Shown one piece after another: positions 27,179 to 40,912 of a stretch of 64,000 nt of DNA; within the stretch, counting starts at the first letter, position 1; the number at the start of each line of letters is the position of its first letter. The notes beneath the pieces were generated by a model. That model was not told the DNA's origin, ran no database searches, and saw only the letters and a list, made by a program, of their open reading frames with translations. A program made the position numbers and the translations under genes. The stretch comes from an uncultured Pseudomonadota bacterium (GTDB taxonomy: Bacteria > Pseudomonadota > Alphaproteobacteria > Rs-D84), in assembly GCA_902798205.1 (NCBI GenBank), contig CADBVV010000004.1, positions 21,572 through 85,571 on the forward strand, written 5' to 3'.

Positions 27179-27190
27179 AAAGGACAAACG

Positions 27191-27703
27191 ATGAAAATAT
27201 TGGTATTAAACGGCAGTCCAACCCCAAATGGTAACACAATCGCATTGGTAAACGCTTTCAAAGAAGGTGCCGAATCCAAGGGACACGATGTCAATGTTGT
27301 AAATGTTGCCCACAAAAATATCAAGGGATGTATGGCATGTAATTTCTGCAAACGTAACAACGGTCAATGCGTTCAAAAAGATGATATGCAAGAAATTTAC
27401 CCATTGATTCAAGACGCAGATATGATTGTATTCGCATCACCAATTTACTATTTCATTATGTCTGGACAATTGGAATCTGTTATCCATCGTTTCTATGCAA
27501 TAAATGCGCCAGAAAAAGCAAAATACAGTGCGTTGTTATTGTCGTCTTATTCACCAAATGTTTATACCGGCGCAATCGCACAATACAAAGATATGATTGC
27601 GTATATGGGTATGTCTGACAAAGGTATTGTAACGGCAGATAATTCAACAAATAAAACACCTGCAAAACTGGCGGAAGCACGTGCATTGGGCGAAAGTTTA
27701 TAA
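27191..27703 (+). CDS. NAD(P)H-dependent FMN reductase / flavodoxin-like oxidoreductase
   Basis: MKILVLNGSPTPNGNT N-terminus, typical of the FMN_red family. Confidence 0.6.
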   Translation: MKILVLNGSPTPNGNTIALVNAFKEGAESKGHDVNVVNVAHKNIKGCMACNFCKRNNGQCVQKDDMQEIYPLIQDADMIVFASPIYYFIMSGQLESVIHRFYAINAPEKAKYSALLLSSYSPNVYTGAIAQYKDMIAYMGMSDKGIVTADNSTNKTPAKLAEARALGESL

Positions 27704-27718
27704 TTACAGGGGGACAAC

Positions 27719-28252
27719 ATGAAAAAAATTTTGTTTATTTTATCATTATTTTTGCCATTTATGGCACATGCGGATAACAACAAAATCTTGGTTGCATATT
27801 TCAGTGCAACCGGAACAACTGCAGAAGTCGCACAAAAATTGGCAACCGCTATAAATGCTGATTTATTCGAAATTGTACCAGAACAACCGTATACATCTGA
27901 TGATTTGAATTGGCAAAACAATCAAAGTCGTACATCGATTGAAATGGGCGACAAAAATTCACGTCCCGCAATCGCATCAAAAATCGAAGACATATCGCAA
28001 TACAATATTGTCTTTGTTGGATCACCAATCTGGTGGGGACGCGAACCATCCATAATGGATACATTTATCGAAAGTTATGATTTTGCCGGCAAAACAGTGA
28101 TACCATTTGCCACATCAGGCAGCAGTGGTATCGGTGATTACGGTGCAAATTTACAAGCATTGGCACCAGATGCAAAAGTTCTGACAGGAAAAAGATTTCC
28201 GGCCGATGTTTCAGGTGAAGAATTAAAAACCTGGGCCGACGAACAAATGTAA
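27719..28252 (+). CDS. flavodoxin-family protein with N-terminal signal peptide
   Basis: Signal peptide MKKILFILSLFLPFMAHA followed by KILVAYFSATGTTAEVA, a flavodoxin-like FMN-binding start. Confidence 0.5.
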   Translation: MKKILFILSLFLPFMAHADNNKILVAYFSATGTTAEVAQKLATAINADLFEIVPEQPYTSDDLNWQNNQSRTSIEMGDKNSRPAIASKIEDISQYNIVFVGSPIWWGREPSIMDTFIESYDFAGKTVIPFATSGSSGIGDYGANLQALAPDAKVLTGKRFPADVSGEELKTWADEQM

Positions 28253-28291
28253 AAAACACCGCCACTTTGGGCGGTATTTTAATTTATGGGG
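28253..28291. repeat. 39-bp direct repeat copy A (terminator hairpin CACCGCC-ACTTT-GGGCGGT plus TATTTTAATTTATGGGG)
   Basis: Exact 39-mer repeated at 28517..28555. Confidence 0.85.
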
Positions 28292-28379
28292 CGGGAGAAC
28301 CTTCCTCAATACACAATCTCCTATTCACGAAGTTTGTATGCTCGATTTTTAAACCTTGCTAACGCTGCGGTAAAAATCG

Positions 28380-28505
28380 GCATCGGGTGACCAGATTGCT
28401 TCGCTGTCGCTACGTTCCCTTGGCTCGTTCGCTTTGCGAACCGGCATACTTCCGTTTGCCTCTCGCCTGCGGGTCGAACTGGCTTCTGCCGGTTCTAAAA
28501 TCTGG
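28380..28505 (-). pseudogene. tRNA-His-derived 3' fragment (anticodon-stem 3' side to acceptor 3' strand) interrupted by a 77-nt GC-rich insert in the T-loop; putative attL region
   Basis: Minus strand reads GCCAGTTCGA, then 77 nt, then AATCTGGTCACCCG. The intact tRNA-His at 40835..40912 reads GCCAGTTCGAATCTGGTCACCCGCC. 28384..28397 is an exact 14-bp repeat of the tRNA-His 3' end. Confidence 0.45.
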
Positions 28506-28516
28506 TCACACCTAAT

Positions 28517-28555
28517 AAATTAAAACACCGCCACTTTGGGCGGTATTTTAATTTA
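28517..28555. repeat. 39-bp direct repeat copy B
   Basis: Identical to 28253..28291. The two copies bracket the GC-rich tRNA-His-like fragment. Confidence 0.85.
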
Positions 28556-28656
28556 TGGGGCCCCGATTTTGACACAACACCACCAGATATTGTGCAGGAA
28601 ACCTTGGGGTTATCACATTTATTAACTGAAATTATGGACGAAATAGAAAAAACATA

Positions 28657-28685
28657 TTTACAACCTGACTTTGATACATTATAAT
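28657..28685 (+). promoter_or_regulatory. sigma70-like promoter (TTTACA-N17-TATAAT) upstream of hipB
   Basis: Near-consensus -35 and -10 hexamers with a 17-nt spacer, about 28 nt upstream of the hipB ATG. Confidence 0.4.
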
Positions 28686-28713
28686 ATAATATATTATCTA
28701 AAATGGATTAAAA

Positions 28714-28998
28714 ATGACAGAATTAGACAACATATTATCTATTAAACAAGGTATCGCTAAAAGATTGCATACAGCACGCAGAAACACCAAAATTTCACAG
28801 ATTGTTTTGGCACAGCGTTCTGGCGTTTCGCTTGGATCTATCAAACGTTTTGAAAGAACGGGTGAGATATCTTTGTCATCTTTACTAAAACTTGCGATGG
28901 TTTTGGGTTATGAATCTGATTTTAATACCCTGTTCACACGCAAGAATTATCAATCCATATTCGATGTAGTAAAAGACGGGGGCAACAATGCAAAATAA
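28714..28998 (+). CDS. hipB: HTH XRE-family antitoxin (HipB-like)
   Basis: HTH_XRE signature QIVLAQRSGVSLGSIKRFERTG. Overlaps the start of hipA by 11 nt. Confidence 0.7.
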   Translation: MTELDNILSIKQGIAKRLHTARRNTKISQIVLAQRSGVSLGSIKRFERTGEISLSSLLKLAMVLGYESDFNTLFTRKNYQSIFDVVKDGGNNAK

Positions 28999-30109
28999 AA
29001 TGTTAATCGTAAAATATCATGGTTCTATTGTTGGTCGTTTGGCATTAACACCTGATAATCTTATGGCTTTTGAATACGATGCCGGCTGGTTGGAAAACGG
29101 GTTCAGTATATCACCTTTCAAACTACCACTGGAAAAGAAAGTTTTTATTGCTAATCGCGACCCGTTTGATGGTGTATTTGGGGTATTTAACGATTGCTTG
29201 CCTGATAACTGGGGGAAATTATTGGTAAATCGTGAACTACAAAGACGTGGCATAGCACCAAACAGTATATCTGTCCTGGACAGATTAGCCATAGTTGGGA
29301 AAAATGGTCCTGGGGCCTTGGAATTTGAACCAAGTGAAGATTTTGCCCAAGAATACAAAGATTCTGATTTGGATACCATCGCCAACGAAATCAACAAAAT
29401 CATTGACGATGCAACTGTTATTACCGAAGATTCTGTTACCGAAGAATTATTCAGAATTGGTGGTTCGTCTGGTGGCACACGTCCAAAGATATTCCGTAAA
29501 TTCGAAGATGGCGATTGGATTATAAAGTTTCGTGCTGCCGTTGATCCTGCGGACATTGGCAAAAAGGAATTTGATATTATGGAATTGGCACAAAAAGCAG
29601 GTCTGGAAGCACCAGAACACAAATTATTCAATAACAAGTATTTTGGTGTAAAACGTTTTGACAGAAAACCAAATGGCGAAAAAGTGTTTATGATTTCTGC
29701 ATCGGGTTTATTAGATGCAGACCACAACCAACCTGTATTAGATTATACTGATTTGTTATCATTAACCGCAAAACTTACCCGTAATATGGTTGAAGTCGAA
29801 AAGATGTTCCGCCTTATGGTGTTTAACGTTTGGATAAACAACACAGACGACCATGCAAAGAACTTTGCATTTTTATATGATGGCAAAGATTGGAAATTAT
29901 CCCCTGCTTTCGACCTTACCCAGACAGTTGGGACATGGGAACACGCAACATCTGTAAATCACAAAGGCACAAATATAACCGGTGCAGACACACTGGCTGT
30001 GGCACATAAAATCGGTCTGACCGACAAACAAGCCGGCGATATTATGCTGGAAGTCAAAGATGCTATAGATCAATGGGATGAACAACATGGAACTAAAACC
30101 AAAAGATAG
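28988..30109 (+). CDS. hipA: HipA-family serine/threonine kinase toxin
   Basis: HipA N-terminal domain (LIVKYHGSIVGRL...), catalytic loop DDHAKNFAF and NVWINNTDDH. Confidence 0.8.
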   Translation: MQNKMLIVKYHGSIVGRLALTPDNLMAFEYDAGWLENGFSISPFKLPLEKKVFIANRDPFDGVFGVFNDCLPDNWGKLLVNRELQRRGIAPNSISVLDRLAIVGKNGPGALEFEPSEDFAQEYKDSDLDTIANEINKIIDDATVITEDSVTEELFRIGGSSGGTRPKIFRKFEDGDWIIKFRAAVDPADIGKKEFDIMELAQKAGLEAPEHKLFNNKYFGVKRFDRKPNGEKVFMISASGLLDADHNQPVLDYTDLLSLTAKLTRNMVEVEKMFRLMVFNVWINNTDDHAKNFAFLYDGKDWKLSPAFDLTQTVGTWEHATSVNHKGTNITGADTLAVAHKIGLTDKQAGDIMLEVKDAIDQWDEQHGTKTKR

Positions 30110-30719
30110 AGAAAAACTTAACCATCTTGTCTCTGAACTATTTAAAATGGCTTTAAGTGCCTATGTTGATTGCTTTATTTACCTGGAATCCCACCTCCGC
30201 AAAAACAATAGTTTTATTTTTATTTATAGTAGAAGTGCTATCCAAGAACGATTGATTATCGCAGTCAAAAAACTTATAGAACCTGCCAAATCTGATAAGC
30301 TCACAATGTTTTCTATAGGCAAAATTATCGAAAAACCAGATTTTTGTGATAGTTTACAAGACAAAAAAGGCATAAAATATATTTACACAGATAGATTAAA
30401 AGAAATTTTCAATTCGGTTCATGCTAAAAGATTAAAAGACATGAGAGATGCCTTCTGTCATAATTTTTGCGACGAAAAGAATGGGATACGTGGATATTGC
30501 AAAGATTTTATGATTGTTCTACAAGAATGTTTGAATATACTATCTGACGTTAAAGAACAAATACTGGATCAACCAGAAACAAGATTTCAACAAGTAAAAG
30601 ATTTAGCATTAAAAATATCCAAAGATTATTGGAATTGTGTGATATCTGGTGCAAAAAAATCTAAAATAACAGATAAAGATTTAAAAATGCTATCCTCTTT
30701 TATTGGCAACATGCTATAA
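30078..30719 (+). CDS. hypothetical alpha-helical protein with HEPN-like Rx4HN motif; third gene of the hipBA operon
   Basis: Overlaps the hipA 3' end by 32 nt. Contains RDAFCHNF (Rx4H followed by N). 213 aa. No other recognised domain. Confidence 0.35.
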   Translation: MNNMELKPKDREKLNHLVSELFKMALSAYVDCFIYLESHLRKNNSFIFIYSRSAIQERLIIAVKKLIEPAKSDKLTMFSIGKIIEKPDFCDSLQDKKGIKYIYTDRLKEIFNSVHAKRLKDMRDAFCHNFCDEKNGIRGYCKDFMIVLQECLNILSDVKEQILDQPETRFQQVKDLALKISKDYWNCVISGAKKSKITDKDLKMLSSFIGNML

Positions 30720-30720
30720 C

Positions 30721-31305
30721 CTAGATCTTTGCTAATTCGACAGCATTCATTAATTGTTGCGGATTATGGTTATAATATCTCTGAGTGGTCTGAATATTTC
30801 TGTGATTCACAAGTGTTTTTACTAAAAATGGATTTGTTCCGTTGTTAATCAATTTGGTTATAAACATGTGCCTGCCAAGATGCGAAGCCCCATGAATACC
30901 AAATTTGTTATAAATATCGTGAAATATTCTGCTGATTGATACCCTGTTAAAAGGTTTATTCATTTTCTGTGATGTAAACAAATAAGTATCAGGTTGCAAT
31001 TTATCACCATATTTCTTTTTCAAATATTCATGGTATACTTCAAATTCTTTCTTAAACTGTTTGTTAACATAATATTGAGCCGCGAATTTTCCCTTGTTTT
31101 TATCTTTACCCAAATCAATAACATTCTTAACAGACCCATCTGGGTTATATATGTCTTTTAATTGCAAATAAGCAAAATTAATACTTCTCATCCCATTGAT
31201 AGAACAAAAGAACATCATACGAAGCATGTCACCATGATTCAACCCTTTTATATAAGTCAAAATATCTTTGATCTGGCTGTCAGATATAAAATCGCCATTT
31301 ACCAT
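30721..31305 (-). CDS. tyrosine recombinase, catalytic domain only (194 aa; truncated or minimal integrase)
   Basis: Conserved Arg (INGMRS), HLGRH box and C-terminal TTQRYY with the nucleophile Tyr. The N-terminal core-binding domain is absent. Confidence 0.6.
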   Translation of the reverse strand: MVNGDFISDSQIKDILTYIKGLNHGDMLRMMFFCSINGMRSINFAYLQLKDIYNPDGSVKNVIDLGKDKNKGKFAAQYYVNKQFKKEFEVYHEYLKKKYGDKLQPDTYLFTSQKMNKPFNRVSISRIFHDIYNKFGIHGASHLGRHMFITKLINNGTNPFLVKTLVNHRNIQTTQRYYNHNPQQLMNAVELAKI

Positions 31306-31482
31306 AAAAACCCTTTTATAATGTTAAACTTTATGTATTATTTAAGTATATATTAACATTTTTATATTGTCAACAGATTCGATTTGCACAAAAAAGCCTA
31401 ATTTCAGCCTATTCCGTCAATAATGTTAAAGAATGATGCTTTTTTAACATTTTATTGCGTACTAAGCACAGAGTAATATATA

Positions 31483-32955
31483 TTAATACTCCAAATTCTC
31501 GTCAAAAACTTCTATTTCTTCTTGTCTGATAGGAAGAGCTAAATGTTTAATCAGACGAATATTAACAAGTTTGCAGGCCAACAACTCAGATCTAACATGT
31601 GGTTTCAACCATGAATTATTCCATAGATTTATATTATCATCAGATATTAATTTACATAATGTTGGTACATAATCCAAATTTTCTCCGCACGCTAAACTTA
31701 ATCGTTGTATCCATATATACACAAAATCTGTATATGCTTTTTTATCAAACTTATTTTTTATACATCTTATAAAGCCAAATCTATCAGATACCGACATACG
31801 TTTTAAAATTTTACTTATAATCGCAAAAGCTTGCGGAATAACTTTTGGATTATTAAAAGCTATATCAAGCATTATATTTAACAACAACTCAAGATCATCA
31901 TTCTTATTAAATCTAATTTTCTTATTTATTTTACCTATACATGTTTGTAAAACGCCAGAATTTTCGAATCTTTTAGCAAATTCGTATAACACAAGAAATA
32001 AATTCTGCTTATCTTGTCTATATTCTGGCCATATATAAAATTTTTCATTTCTTATTGATCCTGTTATAACATCCGATGTTAAACACGTTTTTTCTGAATT
32101 TAATTTTAACCCAAGATTTCTACAAATATCATTTATAAGCTTAATAATTAGTTCTGTATCTTTTATACTGTTTGTAAAAATTCTATAATCATCTCTGTAA
32201 CGTAAAATTTTGTAATCTGAAATATTATTTGCTTCGATTTTATTTGTAAGCAAAACATCTATATACCCAAATACAGTTTCTGCTATAAAATCCATAAGCA
32301 CAGACCCCTGAGGTATACCATTTGTTTGTCCATAGGATAAATTACTAAGCTTAGAATCTAAAACATTACCAAAATTCTCTTTTTTACCCCTATGCTGTTT
32401 TGCAAAATCCACCCCATAAAAAGCCCACGGTATCACATGTGTATATATAGACGAATAACAATCAGATATATCTGTACAAGCCATATATGCAAAAAACATT
32501 GATAATTTAGCAGACTCTTTTTCAAACTTACTTATCCAATTATTAATCTGACTTCCTTTTTGCTTTCTCTTATGTTCCGGAAGAACTGGTATACTAGAAA
32601 CACAAATATTTGGATTTTTTCTGAATTCTCTAAATTTATTTTGTAAAAACAACCAATTTTCTTCAGAACAAATACAATTCACTAAATCAACATACAATAT
32701 AGGGTTAACAGCCGTCAATTTACGCCAAGAATAATTGTTATTTTTATTTATAACTATATCATAATTTACATTTTCTATCTGACTAGGATTTTGGTTCTGT
32801 ATGTCTTTTAACTCCTTATCTTTTAACAAACCATCTGCCACATTCAAAATTTCTTGGAAAGAAAAATACTGTGGCAAATCCCCAGTGAAATAATTTTCAC
32901 TTTTCAAGAAGAATTTTTTTGCATCCTTTGCTGTTAAATCTAACACTGTTGCCAT
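31483..32955 (-). CDS. standalone reverse transcriptase, retron/Abi-like (defence-associated RT candidate)
   Basis: RT motifs: motif 1 TDISDCYSSI; motif 4 NGIPQGSVLMDFIAE; motif 5 ILRYRDDYRIF, a YxDD variant; motif 6/7 GLKLNSEKT. About 150-aa N-terminal and C-terminal extensions. No maturase or endonuclease domain. Confidence 0.75.
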   Translation of the reverse strand: MATVLDLTAKDAKKFFLKSENYFTGDLPQYFSFQEILNVADGLLKDKELKDIQNQNPSQIENVNYDIVINKNNNYSWRKLTAVNPILYVDLVNCICSEENWLFLQNKFREFRKNPNICVSSIPVLPEHKRKQKGSQINNWISKFEKESAKLSMFFAYMACTDISDCYSSIYTHVIPWAFYGVDFAKQHRGKKENFGNVLDSKLSNLSYGQTNGIPQGSVLMDFIAETVFGYIDVLLTNKIEANNISDYKILRYRDDYRIFTNSIKDTELIIKLINDICRNLGLKLNSEKTCLTSDVITGSIRNEKFYIWPEYRQDKQNLFLVLYEFAKRFENSGVLQTCIGKINKKIRFNKNDDLELLLNIMLDIAFNNPKVIPQAFAIISKILKRMSVSDRFGFIRCIKNKFDKKAYTDFVYIWIQRLSLACGENLDYVPTLCKLISDDNINLWNNSWLKPHVRSELLACKLVNIRLIKHLALPIRQEEIEVFDENLEY

Positions 32956-33165
32956 ATGATTTGTCCTAAACTGTAATAACTTTGATTAAGTATAGGTTAA
33001 AAATCCGAATTATCAAGCTCATCTTTCGATTTTTATATGTTATTTATGTTCCAAATATGTTTCATAATTCGAATACTTTATGGTATTCGTTGTTCAAATT
33101 TAAACTTTATATTTGAAAACCTTTAACAAACACTATATCATAAAGAAACAAAAGGTTTGTTTTAT

Positions 33166-35319
33166 ATGATGTTAAAAGAAATAGACAAGGCATTATTAAA
33201 AGCGGTATTAAAAAACGATTCAAACGAAGTGAAAAAGCTCATAAAAGCTGGTGCAAATATTACTTCAAGATTTGATGACGACGATACTTACTTGCATTGT
33301 GTAAAGAACAAAGAAATAGCAGAATTATTAATTAAAGCTGGGGCAGATGTAAACGCAAAAAACAAATCCGGCTTAACACCTTTGTATCGTGCGGAAAATT
33401 TAGAAATAGCAAAACTATTAATCAAACATGGTGCTGACATAAAAATAACCTTACCTAACGGTTATACTGTCCTACATGCAGCAATTTTTCTTAAAAAATT
33501 GGATCTTGCAAAACTTTTCATTGAATATGGTGTAGATGTTGATTCAAAAAGCGAAGAAGGGATAACCCCTTTACATTTGTCACCTACCCCTGAAGCAGCG
33601 GAATTATTAATAGAAAATAATGCAAACATGTATATAGGAGAAAACGTATTCAACACACCTCTTCATTATGCTATAAAAAACAATAACTACGATGTTGCAG
33701 AATTCTTAATAGATGCTGGTATTTGCAACAATAAACACCGAGAATTGTGCTATGATATTTTTCAAAAGACAATAGAATATAATAATATAAAAACATTAAA
33801 ATACTTGATAGAATATGGCATTACATCTGCAGAAACAAAATATACTGTGCCACTATTAAAGATTGCTCTACACTACAAAAATTATGAAATTTGCAATTTA
33901 TTAATTAATAATAATGCGTGTGTTAATTTCTGTGACAAAGAAGGACAAACACCTCTACACACAGCGATTATAATAAGAAACACCGAACTTGCAGAAAATT
34001 TGATAAAACACCATGCAAAAATCAACGCAAGTGACAAAACAGAAAAAACTCCTTTACATTATGCAGCCATAAATGATGACATAGAACTAATTTCACTTTT
34101 GATAAAATACGGAGCCAATATTAATGTCAAAGACAAAGACGGAAACACACCTCTACACTTTGTTAGAGACACAAAATCTGCACTGTGCTTAATTGAACAA
34201 GATGCAGATGTCAACGCAAAGAACAACGAAGGCATAACTCCTTTACATTGGGCAGATAGTGTTGAATTAGCAGATTTGTTAATTAAATATGGAGCAGATG
34301 TTAATGCCACAAACAACAATGGCGTTACACCTTTATACTGGGTAAAAGACTATGATTTAGCAAGGTTATTAATAAATAACGGTGCAGACGTTAATGCATC
34401 CAATAAAGACGGAGCAACCCCATTACATATACAGGACAACCCAAAAATAGCCGAACTATTAATAGAGAAAGGTGCAAATGTTACTGCAAAAATAAAAAAT
34501 GGTGATACTCCACTACATTGGATTGAAAACCCAGAAACAGCAGAGCTATTGATTAAACACGGGGCAGATGTTAAAGCTACAAATAATAATAATGTTACCC
34601 CTTTGCATTGGGCTGAAAACGCACAAATAGCAGAATTATTAGTAAAACACGGTGCCAACATTAATGCAAAAACATCTTTATCTAATTTTACTCCTCTGGA
34701 TTTAGCTATTAAAAACAGTCATTTTGATGTTGTAGATTTTTTAATAGAATGTAAAGCAACTATAAAAAGCCCTAAAAAACTACTTCTTTGGGCTTTAGAT
34801 AATAACAGAACAAACCTAGCACAAAAACTTCTTAAAAACAAATCTATTAAGAATACAAACTCAACTGGCGATACATTATTGCATACAGTACAAACTATTG
34901 ATGGGGTACATTTGTTAATATCAAACGGTATAGATATTAATACAAAAAACAAAAATGGTGCGACCCCATTACATTTAGCGAAAAAACTAGAAATAATAAA
35001 CACATTGATAGAAAACGGTGCAAAAATAGAATCAACCGACAATGAAGGTAAAACACCTTTGTTTTATTATATAATATTCTGTAAAAATGCGGAACGTGCT
35101 AGCTGTTTATTAAAATATGGAGCAAATGTTAATGCAAGAGACAGTGATGGTATGACACCCTTACATTTTGTGCGTTCTATAACGACAGCACAAATATTAA
35201 TTGATTATGGGGCCGACATTAATGCCATAGACAGTCACGGGAAAACGCCTTTATTTTATGCAAAGAAACGTAATAATTCTGCATTAGTTAGATATCTTAA
35301 ATCTATTGGGGCAAAATAA
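33166..35319 (+). CDS. ankyrin-repeat protein (about 20 ANK repeats, 717 aa)
   Basis: Repeated TPLH.A.......LLI..GADVNAKN consensus throughout. ATG at 33166 after AAAGG; the ORF-track start at 33157 is a TTG. Confidence 0.85.
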   Translation: MMLKEIDKALLKAVLKNDSNEVKKLIKAGANITSRFDDDDTYLHCVKNKEIAELLIKAGADVNAKNKSGLTPLYRAENLEIAKLLIKHGADIKITLPNGYTVLHAAIFLKKLDLAKLFIEYGVDVDSKSEEGITPLHLSPTPEAAELLIENNANMYIGENVFNTPLHYAIKNNNYDVAEFLIDAGICNNKHRELCYDIFQKTIEYNNIKTLKYLIEYGITSAETKYTVPLLKIALHYKNYEICNLLINNNACVNFCDKEGQTPLHTAIIIRNTELAENLIKHHAKINASDKTEKTPLHYAAINDDIELISLLIKYGANINVKDKDGNTPLHFVRDTKSALCLIEQDADVNAKNNEGITPLHWADSVELADLLIKYGADVNATNNNGVTPLYWVKDYDLARLLINNGADVNASNKDGATPLHIQDNPKIAELLIEKGANVTAKIKNGDTPLHWIENPETAELLIKHGADVKATNNNNVTPLHWAENAQIAELLVKHGANINAKTSLSNFTPLDLAIKNSHFDVVDFLIECKATIKSPKKLLLWALDNNRTNLAQKLLKNKSIKNTNSTGDTLLHTVQTIDGVHLLISNGIDINTKNKNGATPLHLAKKLEIINTLIENGAKIESTDNEGKTPLFYYIIFCKNAERASCLLKYGANVNARDSDGMTPLHFVRSITTAQILIDYGADINAIDSHGKTPLFYAKKRNNSALVRYLKSIGAK

Positions 35320-35432
35320 CATCTGCTTTTCTATAAAAAAGCATGGGCTAAAAAACACAAAACAAACATATAGACACACACTAAAAAACGTTTAATTATT
35401 CAAACATTACGTAGAATCAAAAAGGTTGTGAT

Positions 35433-36179
35433 ATGAATGATCTGACTATCGTAGATTTACTAACTTCTGTTATTCCAAGAACTGCTACAAGCGGAACTCT
35501 TTTAAAGGCATATTGGAAAAAACAATTAGACGAAAAAATGGAAATAGCATTGTCCGAAATTCGTCAAGGAGCACTTGATAAAATAAATATGGAAGATAGA
35601 ATTTCTATAGCATATAGAATTTGTAGATCTATATCTGAGGGCATTGCCAATCATAATTTTAAGTTGATTTGTCGATTGTTACAAGGCTTAAGCAATAATA
35701 ACAAATTGTCAGCAAAAACATTTAATCGTTTTTCCTCTATTTTAGAAACACTAACAGAAGAAGAACTAAAAGTCATCGCATATGATATATGGATGTATAA
35801 AAACCCTAAACCAAAAATTTCAACAGAAACCAGAACAAAAACAGAAAAAGGTCCAACATTTATAATATTGAAAGAATCAGAAGAATATAAAGATTGGAAA
35901 ACAAAAGCATTGGAATTTATAAATTCATTAAATATCAAAATAAACACAAATGATATTTTTGATCGTCTCGTATCTGGAGGAAAATACATTATAAAAGGCG
36001 AAAATCCATTTTCTACAATTCATTATTCACTATTGAGAACGGGTTTGTATTCTTTAGATATATTAACAAAACAAAAAAACGAAGTGGGCGATGGCAAAGG
36101 ATGTCCCATATTTGAACTTTCTCCATTGATGATGGAACTAATGGATTATATTGATATTTATTTAGACAACAACTTTTAA
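35433..36179 (+). CDS. hypothetical protein (248 aa)
   Basis: ATG with an AAAGG Shine-Dalgarno. No recognisable motifs. Confidence 0.4.
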   Translation: MNDLTIVDLLTSVIPRTATSGTLLKAYWKKQLDEKMEIALSEIRQGALDKINMEDRISIAYRICRSISEGIANHNFKLICRLLQGLSNNNKLSAKTFNRFSSILETLTEEELKVIAYDIWMYKNPKPKISTETRTKTEKGPTFIILKESEEYKDWKTKALEFINSLNIKINTNDIFDRLVSGGKYIIKGENPFSTIHYSLLRTGLYSLDILTKQKNEVGDGKGCPIFELSPLMMELMDYIDIYLDNNF

Positions 36180-36444
36180 AACACAAATCTAAGTAACTCT
36201 CATATATTTCCTTATTTATTCTATATTTTTACTTTTTTCTAAAATATGACAAATGGTGGTATGTTGTACCACCTTTTCTAATAATATGATTCAATTTTAG
36301 TGTTCAGGTTTGGGCAACCCATAGGTTACTTATACCAAAATATCTGTATAAAATCCCATATATAAAAAGCGATTTTATTAAGTTATAGAAATCACATTTT
36401 GTTATAAAAATGTGTTCTTATTATACAGGTAACAAAGGACATAT

Positions 36445-36675
36445 ATGATTGCTAATAATTTGTTTTATCCAGATACATTACTTACGATTTCTGAAGTCTC
36501 TAAAATTAGTGGTTTCAGCAAATCCACATTGTATAAAGATATAAGCAAATCTAAACACAACCACATAGAACCTATGTTGCCATTCTGCAAACTGGGTGGT
36601 CGAATATTTTATCGTTCCAGAGATATCCACTCTGTGATTGATAAAGCATTCGATAGGTCATTAAACTTCTTTTAA
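36445..36675 (+). CDS. AlpA-like phage transcriptional regulator / excisionase (HTH_17)
   Basis: LLTISEVSKISGFSKSTLYKDI...GGRIFYRSRDIHSVI matches the AlpA/Xis family pattern. Confidence 0.6.
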   Translation: MIANNLFYPDTLLTISEVSKISGFSKSTLYKDISKSKHNHIEPMLPFCKLGGRIFYRSRDIHSVIDKAFDRSLNFF

Positions 36676-36773
36676 CAACTTGTTATATCTCCTATTGTTT
36701 GTTGTTAAATGTCCTATATACCTCTTTACTATACCTCACTAAGCTCTAAATTCCACCCAGCTTGCAGTATTGT

Positions 36774-37583
36774 TTATTTGCCCTTACGTTTTCTTTTTCT
36801 GCTTTCCATATAACAATTAATATACTTTTCAAGCACAGTACCACGAAGCCCAAATTCTTCTTGTAATAACTTACGTAACTGCTGTATTTGTTCGTATATT
36901 CTAGAAGCCTTAAAACCGAGAGCTATTCTTTTAAAATCAAGTATCAACCCACGTTTGATATCACTTCTTTTAAAGAATCTTACCCTTAATAAAGCTTCTT
37001 GTTCTTCTGGTAATGGGAATTTCACATTTAATGCTATGTTTGAAGGTATTAAATATGCAGTACTTCCAAGCTTGTCAGATTTTGTGTATATGTACTTTTG
37101 GTTATCTCGGTTATGGTTTTTCCATTCTTTGATACAGTACCTTATACACCCATCCTGATTGTAAATCTTTCTGACATCGATACAATCTTTTCTTAAGCCT
37201 TTTTGTCCTGCCACATACCGAAAAGCTCTTCGTAAAGCCCTCTTTGTAACAAACTTATTCTTAAGGGTCAGAATATGGTAGTGGGTTAAAGCACCTGTCC
37301 TGCCAAACTCCTTAAACCCAAAGAACTGTAAAGCATGTCTACTCTGCTTGTAGTGTTTCCCAAACAGATACAATTCCACATGGTGCATAAATGAACCAAA
37401 CAGCTTATCATAGTTGATTTTGCCGTATATCCCTTCTGCACCAGTGCCTAACAAGCTTGGGGTAAAGGTTACAAAGTACCCCAACCTGTACTTATTCAGC
37501 CAATCCAGAACACCTTTCTGAATGGCAGAAAGTTTTTCATCTTTTAGCTGAAAAATATTTTTTTCTTTTTTTAACTTTTTCAT
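36774..37583 (-). CDS. HUH-superfamily rolling-circle replication initiator (Rep)
   Basis: Motif I YFVTFTP, motif II THYHIL (HUH), motif III RYCIKEWK (YxxK). Basic C-terminus. Confidence 0.55.
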   Translation of the reverse strand: MKKLKKEKNIFQLKDEKLSAIQKGVLDWLNKYRLGYFVTFTPSLLGTGAEGIYGKINYDKLFGSFMHHVELYLFGKHYKQSRHALQFFGFKEFGRTGALTHYHILTLKNKFVTKRALRRAFRYVAGQKGLRKDCIDVRKIYNQDGCIRYCIKEWKNHNRDNQKYIYTKSDKLGSTAYLIPSNIALNVKFPLPEEQEALLRVRFFKRSDIKRGLILDFKRIALGFKASRIYEQIQQLRKLLQEEFGLRGTVLEKYINCYMESRKRKRKGK

Positions 37584-37882
37584 GATTTAATCCTTTATGT
37601 AAAAAAAAGCAAAAAAGCCCTTATTGCGAGAGCAGGAAAATTTTCTGTTCGCATTGTTTAAAGAGATATCGTGTTGGATTCTTGTAATAGTAAACAATTA
37701 TTGAGTCCCCACTAATAGCTCTTGTCTATTAAGTAGAACTCAAAATTTTCCACGGTTTTGTATTTTTAGGATTAATAAAATTTTTTTATTTTTTTGGGTC
37801 AGAAATCTTTTTCCACGAGTTCTTAAAAGTTAAGAAGTGTGAGGGTCACGCTTCTATAACCTTTAAGAAAAGAAGTTTAAAG

Positions 37883-39316
37883 ATGTCTAAAATTGTAAGT
37901 AAAATAAATGCGTTAGGTATAGCAAGAGTGTCAACAAAAAGCCAATGTGATTCATTGGAATCACAAAAAAAAAGAATTTGTACATACTGTGATTCCCATA
38001 CGGAATTAGATTTAAAAAGAATAGAAAATTTAAAAGAATCCGCATATTGTTTAAAACCAGGTTTATTAGATGAAATACTTGGGGCCACTGTAAAAAATCA
38101 AGCCATTATATTGGACAAAGTGGATCGTTTAACCCGTAACCACAAAGACATACCTTTTTTTGAAAAATTAATAGATGAACGGAACATATCTTTTCATTTC
38201 ATACAAGAAAACATTGTTTGGGATCAAAATACAACAAGAGACCTGGTAACAAAAATTGTTGCATATATAAATAAGGCTGAAGAAGAATCCGACAGTACAT
38301 CCAAACGAACAAAAAATTGTAACATTATTATGCGAGAACACGGGAAGATAAGCACCCCTGCCCCTTTTGGTTATATTAATTATGCCGAAGGTGAAGAAAA
38401 AGGTTGGAAACCGCATAAAGTAAATTCAAAATACGTAAAAGAGCTGTTTGAAATGTATGCTACTGGCAATTACTCAATCAGAACCATCACAGAAATATTG
38501 AACAAGAAATATGGCAAATCTTTAAAAAAACCATTATCACATCAACATGCTGCAAGTTTGTTACACAACAAATTCTTTATTGGTATTGCCTGTCATGATG
38601 GTGTCGAATATAAACACATATATAAAACATTTATAACCAAAGAGATTTTTGATAAATGTCAGGTTATATTCAAACAGAATGAAAAATCAAAGAAAGATCC
38701 AAAAGTACTTATTTCACCACTTTATGGTATGGTACGAGACAAAAACACAGGTGCCTTATTCACTCCATACAGAAATAAATGTAAAAAACGTAATTATCTG
38801 AAGACAAAAGATTCAAACCTTGGCAATTTATCTGAACAAACCGTTATTAAAGGTATCAAAGAAGCATTAAAGAATTTAAACAAAGATAAAGATGTTGTCG
38901 ATATTTTATCAAATCAACTGAATATCGATGTCAAAGAAAACTTAGACTCTTTGACCCAAAAAGCTAAGAATGAAGCAGAAACAATAAACAAATTAGAAAA
39001 TAGATTAGTATCTATATTAACTGAAAATTTGAGTATGAGCGAAGAATATATGAACAAATCTATTCAAAATATTCATAAAAAAATAGAAACCCATAAATCT
39101 ATATTGAATAACTATACAGTAAACATCGAAAAGATTAAAAAAGATGTTATTGATGTAAAAGGTGATTTGTTCGAATTTTTCGGGACACTTAGCACACCAA
39201 ATCAAACCAAGATGTTGAAAATATTATTTTCTGAAATTCAGTATAACAATAACTGTTTTATATATAAATTCCAGAAACATATTAAACACAACTCTGTCAA
39301 TTATCAATTCAGATAA
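37883..39316 (+). CDS. large serine recombinase
   Basis: N-terminal resolvase catalytic domain (GIARVSTKSQ with the Ser nucleophile), recombinase domain and C-terminal coiled-coil. 477 aa. Confidence 0.8.
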   Translation: MSKIVSKINALGIARVSTKSQCDSLESQKKRICTYCDSHTELDLKRIENLKESAYCLKPGLLDEILGATVKNQAIILDKVDRLTRNHKDIPFFEKLIDERNISFHFIQENIVWDQNTTRDLVTKIVAYINKAEEESDSTSKRTKNCNIIMREHGKISTPAPFGYINYAEGEEKGWKPHKVNSKYVKELFEMYATGNYSIRTITEILNKKYGKSLKKPLSHQHAASLLHNKFFIGIACHDGVEYKHIYKTFITKEIFDKCQVIFKQNEKSKKDPKVLISPLYGMVRDKNTGALFTPYRNKCKKRNYLKTKDSNLGNLSEQTVIKGIKEALKNLNKDKDVVDILSNQLNIDVKENLDSLTQKAKNEAETINKLENRLVSILTENLSMSEEYMNKSIQNIHKKIETHKSILNNYTVNIEKIKKDVIDVKGDLFEFFGTLSTPNQTKMLKILFSEIQYNNNCFIYKFQKHIKHNSVNYQFR

Positions 39317-39385
39317 GTATATTTTGTAATATGGGTTGCTTTTGGATTGCAAACATTCCAAACTCTATACAGAAAGGGGTTTGGA

Positions 39386-40846
39386 ATGAAAGCGATTCTC
39401 TTAGCCAGAGTTAGCAGCAAAGAACAAGAAGAAGGCCATAGTTTAGTTGCTCAACTTGACCGTTTGCATGCTTATTGTGAACGTAAAAATTTAGATATTA
39501 TCCAAGAATTTACTCTGGTTGAAAGTTCTACCAGAGGCGAAAGACCAGAGTTCCAAAAAATGATCGCTTATATTAAAAAGCAACATGAAAAAGTAGCCCT
39601 GGTATGTGATAAGGTTGACCGTTTACAGAGATCCTTTAGAGAGGTTCCTGTCCTTGAACAATTACATAAATCCGAAAAATTAGTCCTGCATTTTGTAAGT
39701 GAAAACCAAATACTTGATTCTGGGGCCAACAATTCGCAAATTATGGCCTATCAAATATTTGTTATGATGGCTGAAAATTACACCAACTGTATCAGCGATA
39801 ACGTAAAACGTTCTTTTGAGAAAAAGATTAAAGAAGGCAGTATTTTAACCTTTGCACCCATAGGGTATTTAAACGTCACCATAGATGGTGTAAATACCGT
39901 TATAATAGATCCTATCCGTGGTCCAAAAGTTCGCATGTTATTTGAAAAATATGCCACCGGAACAGTATCCATACACCAGCTTGCCCGATATGCTGTTGAA
40001 ATCGGTCTGTTATCAAAGAAGAACACACAAATATCCCCACAACAAATTCACTTTATCATAGCCAACCCATTCTACTATGGCATGATGAGAATCAAAGGCA
40101 AACTGTACCAGCATTCATACAAAACACTTATAACTAAAGACATGTTTGACCTATGTGCAAATATAAGGACAGGACGAAACACAAATGTTTGCAAAAGAAA
40201 GAATCCTGATATGTTATTGGCTGGTTTAGTCAGGTGTCCACTTTGTGGCAAAGCATATTCCCCATATTTAGCCAAAAATAAATATATTTTCCTGCACCAG
40301 CCACGTGATAAAAACTGTGTACACCATCACTTGTCTGCAAAACCTATCCTGAAACAAATAAACGATGTTTTACAAGCATTACACTTTAAACCAGAACACA
40401 AAGAAAGCATTCTTGCTAACCTAGAAAAGAAGAAAACAGAAGCAATCATCAAACGAGACGAATACATAGCCAGACTTTATGAAGATCGAACTAAATTAAT
40501 AGCCAAGAAAAGTAGATTAACCGACCTGTATTTAGATCGTGGTATAGATAGAGAAGAATACGATAAAATCACCAATCAAATAAGTAATGAACAACAAGAT
40601 TTACAACTGAAAATTGATGGTTTAGACGACAGAATTTCCGCTTTTTATGACAATCTTATCAAATGTGTAAAAATCGCAGATATCAGCCATTTTTTGTTAA
40701 AAAGTTCGAACTTTCACAAAAAACAGCTTATTTTAAAATTGATAAGTTCGAACTTTTTTATAGACGATAAAAATCCAGTAATTTCAATAAGATACCCCTT
40801 TGAAAACATGCTTCAAAGGGGTTATCGTCAAGACTGGGGCGGGTGA
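39386..40846 (+). CDS. large serine recombinase (second, tandem); 3' end overlaps tRNA-His 3' end
   Basis: AILLARVSSKEQ catalytic motif. Zinc ribbon RCPLCGK...C.HHH. The stop codon lies within the tRNA-His acceptor-stem sequence. Confidence 0.8.
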   Translation: MKAILLARVSSKEQEEGHSLVAQLDRLHAYCERKNLDIIQEFTLVESSTRGERPEFQKMIAYIKKQHEKVALVCDKVDRLQRSFREVPVLEQLHKSEKLVLHFVSENQILDSGANNSQIMAYQIFVMMAENYTNCISDNVKRSFEKKIKEGSILTFAPIGYLNVTIDGVNTVIIDPIRGPKVRMLFEKYATGTVSIHQLARYAVEIGLLSKKNTQISPQQIHFIIANPFYYGMMRIKGKLYQHSYKTLITKDMFDLCANIRTGRNTNVCKRKNPDMLLAGLVRCPLCGKAYSPYLAKNKYIFLHQPRDKNCVHHHLSAKPILKQINDVLQALHFKPEHKESILANLEKKKTEAIIKRDEYIARLYEDRTKLIAKKSRLTDLYLDRGIDREEYDKITNQISNEQQDLQLKIDGLDDRISAFYDNLIKCVKIADISHFLLKSSNFHKKQLILKLISSNFFIDDKNPVISIRYPFENMLQRGYRQDWGG

Positions 40847-40912
40847 CCAGATTCGAACTGGCGACATTCGGTACCACAAACCGACGCTCTAACCAACTGA
40901 GCTACACCCGCC
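40835..40912 (-). tRNA. tRNA-His (anticodon GUG) with G-1 and encoded CCA
   Basis: GGCGGGTG-TA-GCTCAGTTGGTTAGAGC-G-TCGGT-TTGTGGT-ACCGA-ATGTC-GCCAG-TTCGAAT-CTGGT-CACCCGC-C-CCA. The cloverleaf folds, with an extra 5' G pairing with the discriminator C73. Confidence 0.9.

Follow-up and report, generated by a model that had tools for sequence, protein, structure and literature searches.

What does a lone reverse transcriptase (RT) gene do on a mobile island in a gut bacterium, and does it need an RNA or a partner protein to do it? The 64,000-nucleotide (nt) stretch of contig CADBVV010000004.1 that we analyzed, hereafter the window, carries such a gene (Table 1). A sequence-only reading of this DNA had described it as a stand-alone RT of abortive-infection type, with Abi-P2 among several candidate families, and had suggested that it might belong to an uncharacterized group. 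We found that the 490-amino acid (aa) protein is a full-length member of the Abi-P2 family of class 1 UG/Abi RT-like polymerases. Very probably, it is a protein-primed, template-independent single-stranded DNA (ssDNA) polymerase of the Abi-P2 type that serves as a single-gene anti-phage system and was acquired as island cargo. The Abi-P2 family is already characterized, with a published crystal structure and a biochemically defined activity (PMC9508834), so the idea of an uncharacterized group falls away. The protein in the window is a divergent member of this family (about 32% identity), yet otherwise a typical one. Our work therefore assigns the gene to a defined defense family and names residues on which the assignment can be tested (Tyr30, Asp162, and Asp255/256), which is annotation rather than discovery.

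Family assignment and fold

The open reading frame (ORF) marked in the sequence-only reading was recovered over the same span in the ORF list of the window, with exact coordinates, and runs intact from ATG to stop. We placed its product by profile scores and fold comparison. Placement by hidden Markov model against the UG, DRT, Abi, and retron collections, which had been proposed as a check, gave PADLOC AbiP2 (PDLC03744) as the best match (E = 4.7e-164, 545 bits), and the alignment joins residues 1-487 to profile positions 4-486 of 489. The sister groups scored far lower, with Drt6 as runner-up (182 bits), followed by Drt4 (158), UG14 (157), and AbiK (95). When we searched solved structures with phmmer, the best match was PDB 7R08 (E = 2e-72, query residues 2-456 on chain residues 33-504), and the next match stood at 1e-15. 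The 7R08 structure is that of Abi-P2 from Enterobacteria phage P2-EC30, the founding member of the family (Figiel et al. 2022, PMC9508834). Comparison by tblastn with P2-EC30 and P2-EC58 (AM157365, AM157368) gave 32% identity over 99% of the query.

The predicted fold leads to the same family. An AlphaFold2 model, built like our residue conservation on a 60-sequence alignment of relatives, was confident (predicted local distance difference test 93.4, predicted template modeling score 0.92). In Foldseek, the model matched the six chains of 7R08 with template modeling (TM) scores of 0.84-0.87; the match to 7R08 as the best PDB entry has TM 0.85/0.86 and a root mean square deviation of 3.0 over about 510 columns. 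The runners-up were DRT6 (0.67), DRT4 (0.64), AbiK (0.57), and AbiA (0.45). Scores were about 0.33 for retron RTs, about 0.3 for DRT2 and DRT9, and 0.3-0.4 for group II RTs. Profile, homology to 7R08, fold, and key residues thus agree on Abi-P2 and bear out the earlier view of a stand-alone RT of abortive-infection type.

Why did the protein look like a core RT with extensions? Pfam recognizes just the palm region: RVT_1 alone matched, at residues 156-294 (E = 6e-11, 42.9 bits against a gathering score of 29.6), which left about 155 aa on the N-terminal side and about 196 aa on the C-terminal side. The earlier estimate of about 150 aa on each side was therefore roughly correct. The accompanying statement that the extensions match no family was not, since both match Abi-P2 over their whole length by profile, homology, and fold. 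It follows from the full-length profile match and the superposition on 7R08 that the N-terminal extension is the enlarged fingers subdomain of Abi-P2, which includes the priming loop, and that the C-terminal one is the helical alphaRep/HEAT-like lobe. A lobe of this kind defines the class 1 UG/Abi RTs (PMC9226505). In the predicted structure, the protein has the expected bilobal fold, in which fingers and palm without a thumb are joined to a helical alphaRep lobe. The secondary structure of the model puts the last palm strand at residues 291-293. Sequence alignment supports homology of the C-terminal lobe with the 7R08 helical domain as far as residue 456, and the fold agrees.

Catalytic and priming residues

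The RT motif set reported in the sequence-only reading is present, with T161-D162-I-S-D as motif A and Y253-R-D-D256 as motif C. Loss of the YxDD aspartates would have spoken against that reading; both Asp255 and Asp256 are in place and, like Arg254, are fully invariant in the 60 relatives, and Tyr253 is nearly invariant (at least 90%). Tyr253 aligns with Tyr282 of 7R08, which is the counterpart of AbiK Tyr245, the sole DNA-contacting residue of AbiK with a clear counterpart in Abi-P2 (PMC9508834).

The priming residue can be predicted with the same alignment. HMMER sets Tyr30 (LPQYF) opposite Tyr61 of 7R08 (LPAYI), and Tyr30 is invariant in the 60 relatives. Substitution of Tyr61 with phenylalanine abolishes DNA synthesis by 7R08, and the same change at its Tyr46 is tolerated, with activity kept in vitro (PMC9508834). 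The window protein has a phenylalanine, Phe15, at the position of this dispensable Tyr46. Moreover, the helical lobe also contains invariant residues (W415, Q417, R418, W445, W449, and E480), which argues that the whole protein is under constraint.

The likeness to Abi-P2 of P2-EC30 therefore covers full-length collinear homology, the bilobal fold, the catalytic motifs, and the position of the priming tyrosine, and it extends to the single-gene arrangement on a mobile element. The two proteins differ in sequence, as noted above, and in length, the window protein being about 20 aa shorter (490 versus about 510 native residues). They also differ in setting: the E. coli gene lies in a variable locus of a P2-like prophage, whereas the gene studied here lies in an alphaproteobacterial island at tRNA-His with serine recombinases.

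Flanking RNA and partner genes

Does the polymerase come with an RNA? Because some UG/Abi systems need a non-coding RNA (ncRNA), we examined both flanks. Rfam at the gathering score returned two tRNAs only for the whole window, with no group II intron or other RNA family, and at E <= 1 no family matched between 30600 and 33400. The search of the flanks with covariance models that the sequence-only reading had proposed thus yielded no structured ncRNA. By single-sequence folding, the 201 nt upstream had a z-score of -2.0 and the 177 nt downstream a z-score of -1.1, values that are unremarkable for AT-rich DNA. An alignment of the DNA upstream of the gene in the four nearest distinct loci showed no sequence conservation with the window. 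In about 80 related loci, the distance to the nearest ORF has a median of 94 nt on the upstream side and 90 nt on the downstream side, with first quartiles of -4 and 12, respectively, and in the closest relatives the downstream gap is as short as 16-33 nt. With flanks that overlap or are this short, there is no constant room for an RNA gene in the family.

An AGGA ribosome-binding site lies at 32964..32967, 8 nt 5' of the gene, and a promoter-like TTGATA-16-TATACT lies at 33016..32989, about 33 nt 5' of it. The identical protein with the same neighbors is found on a second, independent metagenome contig.

Does it come with a partner protein? We clustered the three neighbors on either side of 81 related loci. 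No neighbor was common to all relatives, and no conserved partner gene was found. The HipBA module, the ankyrin protein, and the 213- and 248-aa ORFs that lie near the gene in the window had no counterparts beside any relative, and the short tyrosine recombinase next to it clustered only with generic integrases at varying offsets. The neighbors of the closest relatives all differ from one another: a Na/Ca exchanger and DUF4379 in one, a resolvase, Bro-N, and integrase in another, and restriction-modification (R-M) methylases, Mrr, and an integrase in a third. Genes of type I R-M systems (hsdM, hsdS, and hsdR) were the sole recurrent neighbor set; because they accompany a minority of loci and are absent from the window, they are not an obligate partner. 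AbiP2 has been described as a stand-alone multi-domain immune protein (PMC9226505), and the window gene fits this description, with neither an ncRNA nor an obligate partner seen, subject to the caveat that 25 of 82 relatives are located within or next to type I R-M operons.

Proposed mechanism and alternative explanations

Family membership, the absence of RNA and partner, and the island context come from direct analysis. For activity, oligomeric state, phage defense in this host, and trigger, we infer the following scheme from characterized relatives. The enzyme would be an RT-derived DNA polymerase made of fingers and palm, lacking a thumb and fused to a C-terminal helical domain, and by homology it is expected to form trimers or hexamers (PMC9508834). 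The first nucleotide would be attached in cis to the hydroxyl of Tyr30, and random-sequence ssDNA would then be extended without a template by means of Asp162 and Asp255/Asp256, while the helical lobe keeps the growing strand in the place that a template would normally take. Its role would be that of a single-gene anti-phage system of abortive-infection type for which neither ncRNA nor partner gene is needed, and the host lineage would have gained the gene horizontally as cargo of the 13.7-kb island integrated at tRNA-His.

How could random ssDNA protect a cell from phage? In the activation model for DRT4 and DRT6, the nearest structures after Abi-P2 itself, ssDNA is produced constitutively and trimmed by host exonuclease until a phage DNA-binding protein shields its 3' end, and it is toxic on accumulation (PMC12783706). 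With moderate confidence, we adopt this type of model by analogy as the most likely link between ssDNA and defense for Abi-P2. In an uninfected cell, ssDNA would be made constitutively and kept short by host exonucleases. During infection, a phage ssDNA-binding or annealing protein would protect the 3' end of the product, so that ssDNA accumulates and is either toxic to the infected cell or ties up the phage protein.

Several points weigh against this reading. Identity to the sole characterized Abi-P2 is just about 32%, and the activity is assigned by homology. The connection from ssDNA synthesis to defense is explicitly left unresolved for Abi RTs in the literature (PMC12783706, PMC11077055), and some Abi RTs may not kill the cell. 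The sole phenotype reported for Abi-P2 is exclusion of T5, in E. coli (PMC11077055). Finally, a considerable fraction of the relatives is found inside type I R-M operons, so members of the family may in some cases work together with other proteins, and a copy that stands by itself could differ in behavior.

Could the protein be another kind of RT altogether? The nearest alternative is a different class 1 UG/Abi group, such as DRT6 (UG12; 9WY8), DRT4 (UG15; 9VDO), UG14, or AbiK, which would mean similar chemistry with another priming site and assembly. DRT6 and DRT4 share with the window protein the class 1 architecture, the C-terminal alphaRep domain, the single-gene arrangement, and protein-primed, template-independent ssDNA synthesis (the last by homology for the window protein), and the profiles of all four groups are significant, with the next-best folds at TM 0.57-0.67. 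However, the match to the AbiP2 profile spans the entire protein with a threefold higher score (545 versus 158-182 bits for DRT4 and DRT6), and 7R08 is far ahead both by sequence and by fold (TM 0.85 versus 0.64-0.67). The NCBIfam Drt4 model reaches 112 bits against a cut-off of 450. Moreover, the predicted priming tyrosine is at the Abi-P2 position in the fingers loop, whereas DRT4 primes from Tyr125 in the palm (PMC12783706). AbiK of Lactococcus lactis (7R06/7R07) also combines RT-like and helical lobes, primes from a fingers-loop tyrosine, and synthesizes DNA independently of a template in a trimer-based assembly, a hexamer stabilized by DNA, and its helical domain has no sequence homology to that of Abi-P2 (PMC9508834). 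Its sequence similarity to the window protein is confined to the palm (46 bits). We therefore consider another class 1 group very improbable. An enzyme that copies an adjacent structured RNA, as retrons, DRT2, DRT3, and DRT9 do, is more improbable still. The about 200 nt of non-coding DNA upstream with its fold z-score, the 177 nt downstream, and weak palm matches to retron RT and Drt3 profiles are what such an enzyme might show, and the sequence-only reading had used the term retron-type. Yet the retron St85 RT profile (NF038233) gives 25 bits against a cut-off of 235 and Drt3a 21 against 200, no msr/msd-like RNA or Rfam match at E <= 1 accompanies the gene, and the upstream region is not conserved among relatives, many of which have overlapping or very short flanks. 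The flanks in the window carry ordinary promoter-like sites, and fold similarity to retron and DRT2/DRT9 RTs is low (TM about 0.3). The term retron-type is thus not borne out. An RT/maturase encoded by a group II intron, complete or fragmentary, is scarcely credible: TIGR04416 (group_II_RT_mat) does match residues 209-293, but with 39 bits against a cut-off of 300; the fold reaches a TM of just 0.3-0.4 to group II structures; and neither an intron RNA domain at either Rfam threshold nor an X/maturase or endonuclease domain was found. This agrees with the sequence-only reading, which had seen no maturase, endonuclease, or group II intron RNA, and Pfam, NCBIfam profile, and Rfam searches found none. 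Classification as a retron or group II RT with identifiable RNA domains would have spoken against that reading, and no such classification emerged.

An explanation of another kind accepts the family and doubts the role. The gene could ride on the island as a passenger that is silent or in decay, or could serve the island itself, for example in maintenance or addiction beside HipBA, rather than defend the host against phages. Its surroundings speak for this, with a toxin-antitoxin module, a truncated tyrosine recombinase, and further cargo whose GC content varies. Against this, the ORF is intact and full length and keeps every residue that is invariant in the family, a ribosome-binding site and a promoter-like site precede it, the identical protein recurs on two independent contigs, and HipBA stands beside no relative. 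We regard a passenger or island-serving role as improbable, and an Abi-P2-type anti-phage polymerase remains our preferred reading. A divergent homologue from a gut alphaproteobacterium adds a comparison point for this family.

Family distribution and association with type I restriction-modification

The Abi-P2 family is large, with 5,529 database proteins at E <= 1e-10. At least 568 matches were confirmed among species-representative genomes, and these span many phyla, lineages of the candidate phyla radiation (CPR), and one metagenome-assembled genome (MAG) of Methanophagales. Full-length homologues with about 39-40% identity occur in the Methanophagales archaeon MAG (L083) and in CPR/Patescibacteria MAGs (L031, L046, L060, L070, and L073). 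The archaeal and CPR homologues indicate either very wide horizontal spread or contamination of genome bins.

How often do these polymerases lie with type I R-M genes? We counted over 82 non-redundant related loci, 43 of which have at least 4 kb on both flanks. Type I R-M genes lie within 6 kb in 25 of the 82 loci and in 18 of the 43 with long flanks. The gene order hsdM-hsdS-RT-hsdR occurs in at least nine loci (e.g. L015:3133-10434, L058, L085, L082, and L046), and 15 loci have an hsdS or hsdR in the same orientation as the RT gene at a distance of -23 to +87 nt. Other relatives lie beside R-M methylases, Mrr, or integrases, and such surroundings speak for a link of the family to defense. 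In a small sample of the Abi/UG literature, we found no description of the hsdM-hsdS-RT-hsdR arrangement for AbiP2.

In the prr locus of E. coli, the slot between hsdS and hsdR is held by the anticodon nuclease PrrC. The RT gene occupies the same slot in nine or more relatives, and this position suggests a guard arrangement. However, PrrC is a wholly different protein, and the RT gene in the window has no R-M neighbor, unlike PrrC at the EcoprrI locus. The co-location may reflect simple clustering in defense islands or a PrrC-like guard arrangement. A bolder version, in which Abi-P2 polymerases are often wired to type I R-M systems and released when a phage disables restriction, with the copy in the window as an emancipated orphan, strikes us as unlikely, and nothing in the window supports R-M coupling. 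If it were true, the orphan copy might have its own trigger. The recurrence of hsdM-hsdS-RT-hsdR nevertheless provides a lead on the regulation of Abi-P2 enzymes.

The mobile island and its other genes

The gene lies on a mobile island, as the sequence-only reading had proposed. A sister genome (L089, LigA 92% identical) is collinear with the window up to 27178 and from 40835 onward, and has 378 bp in place of the 13.7 kb between them; synteny breaks off precisely where the tRNA-His gene has its 3' end. Two tandem large serine recombinases lie at this edge and are the likely integrases of the island; PHROG 95, annotated as integrase, matches both (8e-60 and 1e-42). Furthermore, GC content over 30-40 kb is 0.28-0.33, compared with 0.36 for the window, and that of the RT gene is 0.28. 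A search for a classical attachment (att) direct repeat turned up no more than 14 nt that repeat the tRNA-His 3' end, at 28384-28397, and a 40-nt duplication of unusual kind, and we therefore set the left end of the island by synteny.

Table 1. Coordinates of the Abi-P2 family gene, its coding features, and its surroundings in the window
Feature	Position	Strand	Basis or remark
Abi-P2 family polymerase gene	31483..32955	-	ORF, 490 aa plus stop codon; PADLOC AbiP2, 7R08, and Foldseek matches
RT-like lobe, fingers and palm with N-terminal priming loop, about residues 1-295	32071..32955	-	Model, RVT_1, and 7R08 alignment; boundary approximate
C-terminal helical (alphaRep/HEAT-like) lobe, about residues 296-490	31486..32070	-	All-helical in AlphaFold model
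Tyr30 codon, predicted priming tyrosine (LPQ-Y-F)	32866..32868	-	Aligns with 7R08 Tyr61
Asp162 codon, motif A catalytic aspartate (TDISD)	32470..32472	-	Invariant in 60 relatives
Motif C Y253-R254-D255-D256 (catalytic YxDD)	32188..32199	-	R254, D255, and D256 invariant
Upstream intergenic region	32956..33156	-	Promoter-like site and AGGA ribosome-binding site; no ncRNA evidence
Downstream intergenic region	31306..31482	-	Promoter-like site of next gene at 31373..31345; no ncRNA evidence
Variable island segment carrying the RT gene	27179..40834	.	13.7 kb, absent from sister genome L089
tRNA-His(GTG)	40835..40911	-	Island insertion point at tRNA 3' end; Rfam
Two tandem large serine recombinase genes	37883..39316, 39347..40846	+	Pfam Resolvase and Recombinase on first; PHROG 95

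The island is flanked by chromosomal housekeeping genes (recG, rne, a PBP1A-family gene, ligA, frr, uppS, cdsA, rseP, bamA, and dnaB). For LigA, identity is 85% to the protein of Candidatus Enterousia merdequi and 89% to the one of an alphaproteobacterial MAG. On the basis of these identities, the host is placed as an uncultured gut alphaproteobacterium related to Candidatus Enterousia. At the tRNA-His locus of L089, a 114-aa YjbR-family gene (L089:5919-6296) takes the place of the 13.7-kb segment, and the presence of either at the same site indicates that the 3' side of tRNA-His is a variable hotspot in this lineage.

The sequence-only reading had placed the RT gene between a HipBA-like module and an ankyrin protein. 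Both are there, although two further genes separate HipA from the RT gene. On this side lie a HipB-like helix-turn-helix (HTH) protein (28714..28998) and HipA (28988..30109), followed by a 213-aa ORF (30078..30719) and a 194-aa tyrosine recombinase (30721..31305, minus strand). The 213-aa ORF shares 32 nt with the end of hipA and is possibly part of the HipBA module. The tyrosine recombinase consists of the catalytic domain only (Phage_integrase positions 3-171 of 172), without the N-terminal DNA-binding domain, and represents either a truncated enzyme or a minimal form. A strong promoter-like site of its own, TTGACA-17-TATACT, precedes it.

On the other side of the RT gene, a 720-aa protein (33157..35319) consists almost entirely of ankyrin repeats, and the 30-aa (90-nt) periodicity is visible in the DNA. 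This protein scores 335 bits on the PADLOC candidate-defense model PDC-M72A, probably because of the repeats alone. The other PADLOC matches in the island are weak (the HTH protein to RmrA, HipA to PDC-M03A). The 213-aa ORF and two others of 248 aa (35433..36179) and 269 aa (36774..37583) had no match in Pfam, PADLOC, or PHROGs.

Some smaller features of the island were also observed. Its GC content is a mosaic, with the flavodoxin genes and HipBA at about 0.39-0.40 and the rest at about 0.28-0.33. At the right edge, the stop codon of the second serine recombinase lies inside the 3' end of the opposite-strand tRNA-His gene, an overlap of 12 nt. The 40-nt duplication is a perfect direct repeat (28253-28292 and 28522-28561) that forms a terminator-like hairpin after a flavodoxin gene. 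The 229-nt segment between its copies has 49% GC, folds as a long hairpin of about -75 kcal/mol, and has no Rfam match. Fragments of the tRNA-His 3' end occur within it in both orientations, CGGGTGACCAGATT at 28384-28397 and AATCTGGTCAC near 28500. The repeat-bracketed segment as a whole (28253..28561) may be a scar left when the island integrated or was excised, or may itself be a small mobile element.

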